IMG/VR virus record: IMGVR_UViG_3300021964_000017
From: a virus
DNA length: 64,000 nt
Strand: one strand, 5' to 3'
In this document: in pieces, positions 1-22,893 of the stretch
Layout of the letters: each line of letters begins with the position of its first letter
Numbering within the stretch: position 1 is the first letter of the stretch
Position numbers and translations under genes: made by a program
Notes under the pieces: model-generated
Databases searched by the model: none
Seen by the model: only the letters and a program-made list of their open reading frames with translations
What the model was told of the DNA's origin: nothing

Positions 1-1153
1 TATCAGCAAGAACAACGTTTAGATCGTTAATACTTAATGTTTGACTATTAACAATTGTTTGTGTGCCTTGAACAGTGAGGTTACCACGAACAACTAATGT
101 ACCAGCATAACCACCATCGGAATCGCCAATCGGTGATGGATCCAATACCATTGTGTTGTTGGATCCATCAGTTTGGATCGTGTTACCATTAATGACGATA
201 TTATCGACAACAACACGACCTGAGCCGTTAGGAGTAATATTGATATCACCATTGAGGTCAGTAGAAGAAAGAGTATTACCATTCAGATCAAGATTGTCTA
301 CCGTTAACCGTGTTAAATCCAGAACATCTGAATCTAGATGAACAATTAAACTCGTCCCACTAGCAACCGTGTGGATGTTCGTCCCGCCAGTAAGAGAAAT
401 AGACTCATTGACAAGATCAATAGATCCAGCCCCACCATCAGTGGATGTGTTTAGAGTTGTTGCGACAGGGACTGTTCCAGCCGAGTCAATATGGCCTCGG
501 TCATCAACTGTAAAAACAGGGATTGCTGTAGCTGAACCGTATGTACCAGCTGTAACACCAGAACTATCGTGGGTGATCGAGACTTTATCTGTCGAGACTG
601 CAGTGGTGATAAAACCATCACCTTCAAAGTCTAGAGTTTCTGTGTCTAGGTCAATGTCATCTGACCCGGTGTCGCCGGTGATGGATAATACCGAGTTTAT
701 CTGTAGACCATCAACATATGCTTTGGTAGCAGCGTCTTGGTTCGACACAGGATCTGTTACATTTGAGATCAAAGATGAACTAGCGTTAATAAACCCTGTT
801 CCGTTTGGATCAAGGACTATGTTACCATTAGTATCTGTAGAACTAATTGTATTGCCATCAATTGTAATATTATCGATGTTTATTACATCAATCTTGCTGT
901 TCGTGTCCACAAGAAGAGCACTTGATGCTGTCAGTGTACCAGGCTGATGATCTATTAAATTAGCAAAGTATTCACCACCAACTGCTACTATTGAGGTCGC
1001 GTTGCCTGAACCATCGTCACCCTTACCAAAGAATAAGCGATCACCTCCATTGTTATACTGACCTGTACCCTGTGAATAAGCTAATTCACCAGTTTTTAAT
1101 GATCCTGGAGCCAATTGGCCTGTCGATCTTTTAATTCTAATAATTGCGGCCAT
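1..1153 (-). CDS. Tail fibre / long virion structural protein (5' part; runs off window start)
   Basis: Not in the ORF track; translated by hand from ATG 1153 (TAATG overlap with upstream stop): MAAIIRIKRSTGQLAPGSLKTGELAYS...DNITIDGNTISSTDTNGNIVLDPNGTG...SNQDAATKAYVD...GVTAGTYGSATAIPVFTVD...GNLTVQGTQTIVNS, all typical tail-fibre motifs. Confidence 0.85.
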   Translation of the reverse strand, partial: MAAIIRIKRSTGQLAPGSLKTGELAYSQGTGQYNNGGDRLFFGKGDDGSGNATSIVAVGGEYFANLIDHQPGTLTASSALLVDTNSKIDVINIDNITIDGNTISSTDTNGNIVLDPNGTGFINASSSLISNVTDPVSNQDAATKAYVDGLQINSVLSITGDTGSDDIDLDTETLDFEGDGFITTAVSTDKVSITHDSSGVTAGTYGSATAIPVFTVDDRGHIDSAGTVPVATTLNTSTDGGAGSIDLVNESISLTGGTNIHTVASGTSLIVHLDSDVLDLTRLTVDNLDLNGNTLSSTDLNGDINITPNGSGRVVVDNIVINGNTIQTDGSNNTMVLDPSPIGDSDGGYAGTLVVRGNLTVQGTQTIVNSQTLSINDLNVVLAD

Positions 1154-1416
1154 TAATAACTGCCTCCGTTTATTTCGTGATTTTCTAGTAACCGTGATGG
1201 TGACCAAAGATTATCGTCTGGATTATACATTAACATACTTCCCACCACTGCCCCAGCAGTGCTTATCCCACTTATGTTTGATATGTCTGCTGCAGAAGCA
1301 GACCCCCTAACTCTCCGTATAGGAGTTCCCACTACTACTTTTTTAACTTGAGTAGTACTACCTACTGCAGCTACTGTCTTGACTGTTGTCCCGGATAATC
1401 CAACTTGTATTGCCAT
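1153..1416 (-). CDS. Small virion/tail-fibre-associated hypothetical protein
   Basis: 87 aa, tightly coupled to neighbours, ends in INGGSY. Confidence 0.6.
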   Translation of the reverse strand: MAIQVGLSGTTVKTVAAVGSTTQVKKVVVGTPIRRVRGSASAADISNISGISTAGAVVGSMLMYNPDDNLWSPSRLLENHEINGGSY

Positions 1417-1423
1417 AATATAT

Positions 1424-1774
1424 CTACTTAGTTACAGAAGGTGTTACGAGGATTTTACCCTCTAACACTCTCTCGATGATATTGTCACCATCACTATCAA
1501 CAAATGCCATCTCTACATCATATACATAACGACCAGCACTTAGTAAATCTGTCTGAGCGTTGGTTAAAGAAAGTGTTGCAATTCCATCTTGAGGACTATC
1601 TACTACAGTGGTAAAAACCGTTGTGTTATCACTATCACTATTATATGTTTTTTTCATCTTAGCATCAATAGTGTGATTCTGCAAATTTCTTGCCGTCCCA
1701 TCTTTAGTGATCAGATGGATCTCAATAGCAACGTCAGCACCTTGATCAATTGTTATATCTTCATATTGAGCCAT
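1424..1774 (-). CDS. Virion structural protein (BppU-like Ig fold, tail-fibre associated)
   Basis: ITIDQGAD...ATLSLTNAQT...GRYVYDVE...RVLEGKILVTPSVT pattern typical of T4-like marine phages; downstream of a late promoter. Confidence 0.75.
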   Translation of the reverse strand: MAQYEDITIDQGADVAIEIHLITKDGTARNLQNHTIDAKMKKTYNSDSDNTTVFTTVVDSPQDGIATLSLTNAQTDLLSAGRYVYDVEMAFVDSDGDNIIERVLEGKILVTPSVTK

Positions 1775-1818
1775 TGTTTTCCCATAGATTGAATATATTC
1801 TTAGTGTTTTCTTAGTGT

Positions 1819-1826
1819 TATTTATA
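1819..1826 (-). promoter_or_regulatory. T4-type late promoter TATAAATA
   Basis: Exact consensus in the intergenic gap, 45 nt upstream of the 1774 start. Confidence 0.8.
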
Positions 1827-1876
1827 AGAAAAAAATGCTCTACAATTAAGCATTAATCAGTTTTCCTTCGTGTATA

Positions 1877-20840: not shown

Positions 20841-20850
20841 GTTGTATCTC

Positions 20851-21870
20851 TTATGCTGTTATATAGTATAGTGCGTCAGTATCGCTTGATGTGTACAGTT
20901 TAGGCGTCATTAACATCCACCCATCTGTATTATCAACCCATACGCAGTTTACTATACCATATTGTTTTACTGTAAAGCTCGTACCGTTAAAGAATGTTGA
21001 AGGAGTCACGGTAACATCTCCTGCAGCTCTATTAACAAAAGTTTTTGTTTCCCCAACGAAAGACCCGTCTGCCAATGTAGCAGTGCTAGAAGTACCCAGA
21101 TTGAAAATAGATACAGGGCGTTGTAAACTTATCGCTTGGAGGTTGGCGTTTATTGTTTCTGTTCTGTATCTAATCCCAGTTTGTATGTGTATCAAGCCAG
21201 CATTCTTACCAGAAAGTCCTATACCAATGTTTGTGTCAGTACCGTATCCAGCAAGTTGAGGTATGCCAGAAGTAGCTGCATTTGATATTTCTATGTGGTT
21301 TACTGCATTTGCAGAAGGTGTAATTTCTAAAAATTCAGAACCATTTGTATCGTTGATTGCTCCTGTAATTACAGGATTGGTAAATGTAGGAGTTGTAAAT
21401 GTTTTATTAGTAAGTGTTTGAGTGTGATTTTTAAACACAAACTCATCATCACTAGTCAATAGAGGTAATGTAATTGTTCTATCAGCAGCCAACTCACTAG
21501 ATGCAACAACATATTGGTGATCAGCACTAGTGTCGTTAATCTGAGGAGTTGTCAACACTGGTGATGTAATAGTCTTATTCGTCAGAGTCTGAGTAGCAGT
21601 GTTGAGAGTAATAGTACCACTCTCACCTGGTAGCAATACAGTAGATTTAGATGCACCTTCAGTGAAGCCCAATACTGTATCGTGTGTCAGTCCATTATAG
21701 ACAACACCACTATCTGCCAAAGAAACATTTTGTGTAATCTGACCGCTGTCACCACCTAGCAGAGTGTATAGTTCTGCAAAGTTATCATTGATCTTCCCGC
21801 CAGCAATACGCAGAGTATCTCCGGTACCATCATTGGCTGTAACGCCTGTATTGATATTTTGTCTTGCCAT
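20851..21870 (-). CDS. gp9: Baseplate wedge tail-fibre connector (gp9/gp10-type N-terminus)
   Basis: MARQNINTGVTANDGTGDTLRIAGGKINDNFAELY; QTLTNKT repeats. Confidence 0.8.
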   Translation of the reverse strand: MARQNINTGVTANDGTGDTLRIAGGKINDNFAELYTLLGGDSGQITQNVSLADSGVVYNGLTHDTVLGFTEGASKSTVLLPGESGTITLNTATQTLTNKTITSPVLTTPQINDTSADHQYVVASSELAADRTITLPLLTSDDEFVFKNHTQTLTNKTFTTPTFTNPVITGAINDTNGSEFLEITPSANAVNHIEISNAATSGIPQLAGYGTDTNIGIGLSGKNAGLIHIQTGIRYRTETINANLQAISLQRPVSIFNLGTSSTATLADGSFVGETKTFVNRAAGDVTVTPSTFFNGTSFTVKQYGIVNCVWVDNTDGWMLMTPKLYTSSDTDALYYITA

Positions 21871-21897
21871 TGCTAAATCCGTATCTGTGGTTAGTTA

Positions 21898-21905
21898 TAT
21901 TTATA
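21898..21905 (-). promoter_or_regulatory. Late promoter TATAAATA
   Basis: Exact consensus in the gap upstream of gp9. Confidence 0.8.
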
Positions 21906-21912
21906 ATCGTTT

Positions 21913-22893
21913 TTAAGCTGAATCAGAATCATACCAGGTATATTTAACTTCATCCATTGTATCTAATACTGCACGATTCGAGCTAAATCTTGGAGCTCTT
22001 GGATCACCAACTGCTGAATCTTCATCAAATGTTGGCGAGTTAGTACCAATAAGTTCTCTAATAGAATCGTAGTGACGATCAATCTCTGACAATGGAATAT
22101 TCTGAATTTCTTCAACAGAGCCAGGTAGATCAATTCTAAGTTTGCCGTATGTTCCACGACCATCTGAATCAACCTCTCCAGTGAGATCTGTAATTACAAA
22201 TGGGGTTGCCAATGTAGCTGTACCCTCAACAACCGGATCGTTATTGACTTTAACGAAGTTTGGTTGAATAGCGTCAAGAGCCATCTGCGCTATCCCTTGA
22301 AGAAGAACTTCTCCACCAAAATACATACCAGCTGGATGAGCAAAAAGTTTATATGCTTCTCTCCACTCCTGAACAGGAATGTCAGCTTTAATTAGAATTG
22401 CGTATACTTGATATAGTTTATCGTCAGTTAGGAATTTCTGAGACTCAGGACCAATCCTTGAATCGTCAACACCTATCATAAATCTATCTTCTTTAGTGTA
22501 TCTTACTTCAGGTGTAATTCCAAAGAATGCTCTAAAGAACTGTTGAATAGCGTACAACGTGCCTTTAGATCTGTATAGAGTATTTGAATACTTTGCTGCA
22601 GCTCTTTTATTTGTAAAACCTTCAAAGTAAGATTGACCTAGCAACAACTCATCTTCAATGAGAGATAGCAGTGAAAGGTCAGTAGAAGAAATATCCCGAG
22701 AAAAAAATATATCATGAACCAATCTACCAGGAGATTGGTCTGAGTCTTCAAACTGGTTATAGTATTGGAGTAGTTTTATTAACTTGGGGTATTCAGTCTT
22801 AAAGTAATCAGGCAACACTTGTTCAATCTGATGGTTGTCAGTGAACGTATAATCTCTACGCAAATTATCTCTTAATGTAAAATCTCTTGCCAT
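21913..22893 (-). CDS. gp7: Baseplate wedge subunit, gp7-like
   Basis: LYRSKGT..AIQQFFRAFFG, YQVYAILIK, AHPAGMYFGGE; follows gp6. Confidence 0.75.
   Translation of the reverse strand: MARDFTLRDNLRRDYTFTDNHQIEQVLPDYFKTEYPKLIKLLQYYNQFEDSDQSPGRLVHDIFFSRDISSTDLSLLSLIEDELLLGQSYFEGFTNKRAAAKYSNTLYRSKGTLYAIQQFFRAFFGITPEVRYTKEDRFMIGVDDSRIGPESQKFLTDDKLYQVYAILIKADIPVQEWREAYKLFAHPAGMYFGGEVLLQGIAQMALDAIQPNFVKVNNDPVVEGTATLATPFVITDLTGEVDSDGRGTYGKLRIDLPGSVEEIQNIPLSEIDRHYDSIRELIGTNSPTFDEDSAVGDPRAPRFSSNRAVLDTMDEVKYTWYDSDSA

Follow-up and report, generated by a model that had tools for sequence, protein, structure and literature searches.

D-S-[D/A] tripeptides in the outer virion proteins of a T4-like phage and an accompanying Maf-fold gene in two phage lineages

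The 64,000-nucleotide stretch of viral DNA analysed here (the window; IMG/VR record IMGVR_UViG_3300021964_000017) belongs to an uncultured marine T4-like myovirus with 39% GC and is part of a 141.5-kb contig; its T4-like gene set includes gp6, gp7, gp8, gp9/10, VrlC, gp25 and gp32. The outer baseplate and fibre proteins carry the tripeptide D-S-[D/A] about ten times as often as expected by chance, and a gene for a small protein with the fold of the Maf flagellin O-glycosyltransferases accompanies the motif in two unrelated phage lineages. Because the excess lies in outer proteins and the same enzyme recurs in both lineages, the tripeptide probably marks serines coated with sugar. We are fairly confident that D-S-x serves as some form of recognition tag. 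With less assurance, we favour the reading that it is a sequon for phage-encoded virion O-glycosylation, in which the Maf-fold enzyme would prime the serine of D-S-[D/A] and the products of neighbouring genes would extend the glycan.

Form and placement of the motif

An earlier note on this DNA, based on a hand count, had reported about 23 DSD tripeptides in six unrelated tail and baseplate proteins where about 2 would be expected. The count proved exact (2 + 2 + 4 + 7 + 5 + 3, in 3,439 amino acids (aa)), and shuffling within proteins gave 2.1 ± 1.4, with a maximum of 8 in 3,000 shuffles, so the excess survives correction for composition. As the six proteins had been picked after the fact, DSD was recounted across the full set of 22 structural genes (8,719 aa), giving 23 against 3.8 expected (p = 2e-11, or 1.6e-7 after a ×8000 tripeptide correction), and on the whole window, giving 27 against 6.9. 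The remainder of the window was at chance (4 against 4.5 expected), in agreement with the claim that DSD is only sporadic elsewhere. The inner tail proteins do contain no DSD, as had been noted, but this zero cannot be read as depletion, since only 1.4 were expected; gp54, whose product is tail-tube-like, is among those with no site. Apart from these motifs, GGG alone was strongly enriched. Nearly all of its excess comes from one poly-glycine linker in VrlC (aa 1187–1212; window 15825–15902, minus strand) with runs of 12, 7 and 3 Gly.

Following D-S in the window, the next residue was D in 23 cases, A in 8, I in 2 and S in 2. Among the variants said to accompany DSD, DSA was enriched (8 against 2.2), but DSG (1 against 2.5) and DSS (2 against 2.3) were not, and gp9, named as one of their carriers, has just two DSG. 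DTD (2 against 2.5), DAD and ESD were at chance, and DSE was not enriched either. The motif is D-S-[D/A], in which the middle Ser is required and Thr is not used. DT dipeptides were below expectation (17 against 29); avoidance of DT was ruled out as the cause, motif-negative gp8 proteins being equally low (191/282 vs 161/234). With SDS at 4 against 2.4 expected, the sites are isolated tripeptides with no long tandem Ser-Asp repeats. The 23 DSD are encoded by twelve different nine-mers using both TCN and AGT serine codons, which bears out the statement that they are not a DNA repeat and rules out a repeat or codon effect as their origin. Three of the four DSD in the fibre 12755–14095 lie within related internal repeats, leaving about 21 independent sites of the 23.

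Structure mapping placed all eight D-S dipeptides of gp8 within loops, at the tips of hairpins or where a three-residue helix begins, as judged from the secondary structure of a model with a predicted local distance difference test (pLDDT) score of 94.5. This location had been anticipated, but loop preference fails to explain the number of sites, because shuffling confined to coil residues gave 0.48 DSD against the 5 present. The gp8 hotspots were more indel-rich than background (p = 0.008) and mostly polar.

Distribution of the motif and of the Maf-like gene

Homologues of gp8 were present in 536 of 50,697 GenBank phage records, the nearest by gp8 being C48C1 (35%) and the pelagiphage Mosig (30%); the nearest kin of the window phage are uncultured aquatic phages. 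In 120 close gp8 homologues the residue after D-S was D 500 times, A 167 and S 48, and in 135 representatives (50% clusters) it was A 164, D 162, S 100 and G 62. The third position is thus variable, mostly D or A and less often S, G or E. Sites in gp8 come, go and slide by one or two residues within the loops at 22–24, 39–42, 172–176, 241–245, 324–328 and 412–419, and both serine codon families (TCN and AGY) occur at most of the positions where sites are frequent. Sliding sites and the use of both codon families at one position indicate repeated origin. At gp8 aa 39–41, N-x-S/T often replaces DSA in relatives, including motif-negative ones, and is probably structural.

In a gp8 tree built without the motif columns, three or more sites were found in 144 of the 167 members of one clade and in 2 of the 115 members of the other. 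Motif-negative relatives have other residues in the same loops, and nested lineages have lost the motif; in L551 (P0158) and L554 (P0177), which branch within the motif-positive clade, the tail proteins are almost devoid of D-S-[D/A]. No excess was found in marine pelagiphages, cyanophages, an Ochrobactrum phage or a Stenotrophomonas phage. Because pelagiphages and cyanophages show none, the motif is no general adaptation to seawater. In a complete 149-kb relative (G068), the excess was seen in gp7, gp8, gp9, VrlC, fibres, neck and sheath; there was none in gp6, hub, portal or terminase, and the capsid protein has one DSD.

The earlier note assigned the modification to two enzyme clusters in the window. 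The idea that a phage enzyme reads a serine sequon agrees with the enrichment after composition correction, the loop placement and the poor fit to Ca2+ loops, but only the second cluster is linked to the motif, through the Maf-like gene at 46116–46715. The island at 1877–11822 was rejected as the writer: it has homologues in the motif-negative Mosig, G048 and G055, and is patchy among positives. In Mosig this radical SAM, carbamoyltransferase and GT8-like island again lies just downstream of the baseplate genes. No support was obtained for the proposed kinase and phospho-glycan, the candidate gene at 3335–3847 having a single RIO1 match (E = 0.03) and no homologue in other motif-positive genomes. 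Relatives without the second cluster showed no motif excess, which was the pattern the earlier note's own check called for.

The Maf-like gene matched two of the GenBank phage records, C48C1 and the siphovirus DSL-LC06, both motif-positive; the fibres of C48C1 are motif-rich (15 against 3.2 and 5 against 0.8). Where a record spans both loci, gene and motif occur together in about 20 cases and are both missing in 10. Four motif-negatives (G004, G007, G045 and G049) cover the interval where the gene normally sits, yet lack it. This tally excludes two motif-positive records with no enzyme match (G005 and G006), whose contigs do not span the locus, and the nested motif-loss lineages L551, L553 and L554. 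A Fisher test on it (p = 2.5e-7) is not relied on, the records being related and two of them (G027 and G033) looking like the same phage. In the T4-like clade, a core of glycosyltransferase (GT) genes (GT8-like, GT25 and GT-like) lies beside the Maf-like gene in 34–38 of 39 loci, with the Maf-like gene at the operon end; C48C1 and DSL-LC06 have this core in weak form or not at all. Among C48C1 genes present in most positives and in no negatives, the Maf-like gene is the only one also found in DSL-LC06.

The siphovirus DSL-LC06, 30 kb in size, comes from a lake-water assembly (PMC10611076). Its homologue aligns to the Maf-like protein at 98% probability, and its DS[AD] count is 16 against 5.1 expected (p = 9e-5), nearly all in virion genes. 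In siphovirus relatives the gene stands immediately ahead of the fibre gene (13 loci), and pooled DSA, homologous sites included, reached 87 against 27.7. Most of these sites read DSAG and differ in their flanks, and the proteins that carry them are the fibre, Gp80-like, major tail, major capsid, distal tail and hub proteins. A more distant siphovirus group had 10 DSA against 12.2 and no enzyme match in the loci covered, and the complete pelagiphages HTVC111P and HTVC202P, without the gene, had 7 DS[AD] against 4.6 and 6 against 5.7. Just ahead of its fibre genes, DSL-LC06 has about seven glycan genes (L029:1732-9017), annotated as heptosyltransferase, FkbM methyltransferase, two GTs, KpsC-like and Maf-like. 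Heptosyltransferase and KpsC families act on structures based on 3-deoxy-D-manno-oct-2-ulosonic acid (Kdo), and the presence of both genes suggests, by analogy, Kdo as the first sugar.

The Maf-fold protein and the proposed virion glycosylation

The model of the 46116–46715 protein (pLDDT 90) matched best the Magnetospirillum Maf structure 5mu5 (Z = 11.3, root-mean-square deviation 3.5, 165 aligned aa), followed by SteA (Z = 10.1), CstI (Z = 10.0), HPPK (Z = 8.7) and mammalian sialyltransferases. Sialyltransferases also took the top Foldseek ranks, without significance, and the model has the CstII-like GT-A variant fold. The placement comes from fold search alone, as sequence searches of the PDB with the enzyme profile gave nothing useful. 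PF01973 (MAF_flag10/DUF115) did not match the window protein; it matched 27 of 51 homologues weakly (best E = 0.0048) and is found in 13% of the members of the closest named Atlas cluster. Fourteen diverse homologues from both lineages all keep D44, G106 and D128, position 105 being C, S, A or G. The intervals between D44, position 105 and D128 are 61 and 23 residues, against 62 and 23 for the essential D272, S334 and D357 of the Clostridium botulinum Maf, a spacing which suggests that the residues may be equivalent.

Mafs attach nonulosonates or Kdo to loop Ser/Thr residues in the cytoplasm (bioRxiv 2020.06.03.131540; PMC11339370). The phage protein resembles those of Magnetospirillum (5mu5), C. 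botulinum and Geobacillus kaustophilus in fold and in its Asp, Ser-or-Cys, Asp spacing. However, the Maf chain has 632 aa and shares 7% identity with the phage protein, which is a single 199-aa catalytic domain encoded in a phage glycan operon, without the accessory N- and C-terminal domains, the flagellar locus or the flagellin acceptor. Known Mafs also have no known sequon, whereas the proposed acceptor here is a short one. At most it would act like a Maf catalytic domain, and we do not class it as a Maf.

In the pathway we propose, the enzyme would act late in infection, moving an ulosonic sugar from a cytidine monophosphate (CMP) sugar to serines in D-S-small contexts. The acceptors would sit in exposed loops, on the fibres and the outer baseplate as well as on neck and sheath, and the adjoining GT8, GT25, methyl- and sulfotransferases would then lengthen and decorate the glycan. 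Phage-encoded donor synthesis was considered and dropped, the synthesis genes being mostly absent (PF00793 from all virus records searched). The donor would therefore come from the host, most simply as CMP-Kdo. Selection for a coated virion would let new sites arise wherever a loop permits, and the benefit may be resistance to proteases or aggregation, or host recognition. That the DSD serine carries a glycan, as the earlier note proposed, is an inference. A fuller account is put forward more tentatively: the single-domain enzyme may prime D-S-[D/A] with an acid sugar, either Kdo or one related to it, which enzymes of lipopolysaccharide (LPS)-core type may extend, the T4-like clade and the 30-kb siphoviruses having each acquired the enzyme and rewritten their virion surfaces. 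Glycan-coated virions would then be widespread in the sea, and sequence data could be used to predict them.

Several observations weigh against virion glycosylation by this enzyme. Its fold is shared with the non-glycosylating SteA and HPPK and with sialyltransferases that add sugar to glycans, so a glycan or LPS target is possible, and no sequon is recorded for known Mafs (PMC11339370). One record (G064; L713–L715) has the Maf-like gene and the GT operon and no motif in gp7, gp9 or gp8 (8 against 3.7 overall); despite the gene, the motif is weak in G010 and restricted to fibres in C48C1. A CMP-sugar synthetase (PF02348) was found in only one Maf-positive record searched (G061). All T4-like motif-positives fall in one clade, which makes about two independent events, not twenty, and the siphovirus excess is just 2–4 fold, on counts that pool homologous sites. 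In the fibre repeats, D-S stands just ahead of helix-like segments, where it may be a capping motif.

The possible glycan target and G064, which keeps the enzyme with little motif, would also suit a tag read by some other modifier (another GT of the cluster, a kinase or a host enzyme) or by a partner that binds non-covalently, for instance a decoration protein or a chaperone; the Maf-fold protein would then act later on the glycan, or on host LPS. CstI/CstII and GT29 relatives use glycan acceptors, the GT core travels with the Maf-like gene in nearly all loci, and the window covers under half of the contig. We nevertheless consider this explanation unlikely. C48C1 and DSL-LC06 carry the motif although the GT8/GT25 core is weak or missing in both, no second clade-specific gene of C48C1 is common to the siphovirus, and the kinase-like gene is not conserved. 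Quite improbable, in our view, is that D-S-x has a structural role, as an Asx/Ser turn or a helix cap, and spread within one clade as repeats were duplicated and sites inherited. The sites do lie in turns, with one at the start of a short helix, the fibre repeats vary in copy number, and many gp8 sites are inherited; but the homologous loops of motif-negative relatives hold other residues, six unrelated folds as well as neck and sheath carry the motif, Thr and Asn substitutes are not enriched, and it would remain unexplained why motif and enzyme occur together again in siphoviruses.

Acidic loops binding Ca2+ or Mg2+ and stabilising the virion in seawater, an alternative that the earlier note had raised for Ca2+, are very improbable. 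The sites resemble Dx[DN]xDG loops in being acidic and exposed, and six fit the looser Dx[DN]x[DN] pattern; the full pattern, however, fits 1 of the 23 window sites (VrlC aa 599) and 3 of 257 in motif-positive genomes. Here the Ser is required and the second Asp is not: DSA, whose third residue is no ligand, is as common as DSD clade-wide, DxD shows no similar excess when its middle residue is another one, and the marine pelagiphages and cyanophages lack the excess. Least credible of all is that a host O-glycosylation system of the Bacteroidota type reads the motif. Bacteroidota O-glycosylation targets exported proteins, and virions assemble in the cytoplasm. DSA does match the sequon D-(S/T)-(A/I/L/V/M/T) (PMC8550257), but the dominant +1 Asp falls outside it, DT is under expectation, and I, L, V, M and T are rare at +1.

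As parallels to phage-encoded glycosylation, the two bacterial systems cited in the earlier note do not match in detail. The Bacteroidota sequon is alike in placing Asp-Ser-x in many unrelated proteins (PMC8550257) and unlike in that here +1 Asp dominates, Thr is not used and large hydrophobic residues are not enriched at +1. Staphylococcal SdgB and SdgA glycosylate the Ser-Asp repeats of bacterial adhesins with GlcNAc donors (PMC3794999). Their serines too are flanked by Asp, but in tandem repeats rather than isolated sites, and the enzymes probably differ. In mycobacteriophages (Che8 and others; Freeman et al. 2023, as cited in PMC11256854 and PMC12619734), glycans are reported at the C-termini of capsid and tail tube proteins. 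Phage-encoded glycosyltransferases are common to both cases (here the GT8, GT25 and Maf-fold genes; Pfam scans of both window clusters returned GT8 and GT25 as the only glycosyltransferase families). The sites here differ in lying mostly in internal loops of fibres, baseplate, neck and sheath and in being defined by a tripeptide, and the enzyme is of another class.

Virion glycosylation of tailed phages has so far been documented mainly in mycobacteriophages, at protein C-termini. No phage Asp-Ser sequon or phage Maf was found in the literature searched, with subscription journals mostly outside its scope, and a search for papers on C48C1 returned none. Each component, virion glycosylation and the chemistry of Mafs, is known by itself; that literature yielded no tripeptide sequon that extends across the virion periphery and is linked to a stand-alone Maf-fold gene of a phage. 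If the proposal is correct, a three-residue tag directs the coating of fibres and baseplates both in an aquatic clade that is abundant and uncultured and in a siphovirus family unrelated to it, and modified virions could be predicted from genomes. There would also be a further explanation for the many phage glycan operons that are usually attributed to the modification of DNA or LPS, and glycoengineering could profit from a cytoplasmic O-glycosyltransferase of 199 aa that has a defined sequon, as known Mafs have none.

Feature coordinates and further observations

Table 1. Motif-bearing proteins and enzyme genes of the window
Feature	Coordinates	Strand	Remarks
Fibre-like protein, runs off left end (521 aa in same phage)	1..1153	-	DSD at aa 274, 344, plus DSA
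116-aa fibre-associated protein, phrog_1084/3304	1424..1774	-	DSD at aa 47, 93
Radical SAM, carbamoyltransferase, GT8-like enzyme island	1877..11822	.	does not track motif
Fibre protein	12755..14095	-	DSD at aa 37, 48, 74, 150; one DSA
VrlC/DUF4815 baseplate protein	14322..19460	-	DSD at aa 20, 257, 314, 520, 599, 871, 1076; 2 DSA
gp8 baseplate wedge	19473..20840	-	DSD at aa 175, 242, 326, 372, 381; DSA at aa 23, 39
gp9/10-like protein	20851..21870	-	no DSD, 2 DSG; many relatives' versions carry motif
gp7-like wedge subunit	21913..22893	-	DSD at aa 50, 242, 322; 2 DSA
Maf/CstI-fold stand-alone protein, 199 aa, candidate writer	46116..46715	-	invariant D44, G106, D128
GT8-like, two GT25, methyltransferase, sulfotransferase, unassigned GT-like gene	46708..50706	-	candidate chain extension and tailoring

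Further DSA/DSD-rich fibres of the same phage lie beyond the left window edge, partly in repeats. One of these has 1004 aa in one strain (L543:12246-15260) and 765 aa in another (L544:12246-14543), the size difference being the copy number of repeats containing D-S-[D/A]. The fibre at 12755–14095 keeps its N-terminus and ranges from 315 to 1128 aa in close relatives (L005, L016, L021, L024 and L025), and VrlC occurs as two separate genes in some relatives (L040 and L049). A gp8 homologue without the motif is encoded on a 444-kb contig (L674; FLOH01000041.1).

A Maf-like gene 82% identical to that of the window was found on a 21-kb contig (L449) in a Rhodobacteraceae bin; it is probably a mis-binned phage contig and at most a weak hint of the host. 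The window also encodes tRNA-Trp(CCA) and tRNA-Arg(TCT) at 43386–43541 on the minus strand, and the 3′ end of gp26 has a run of 8 T followed by TAG (35724–35733).

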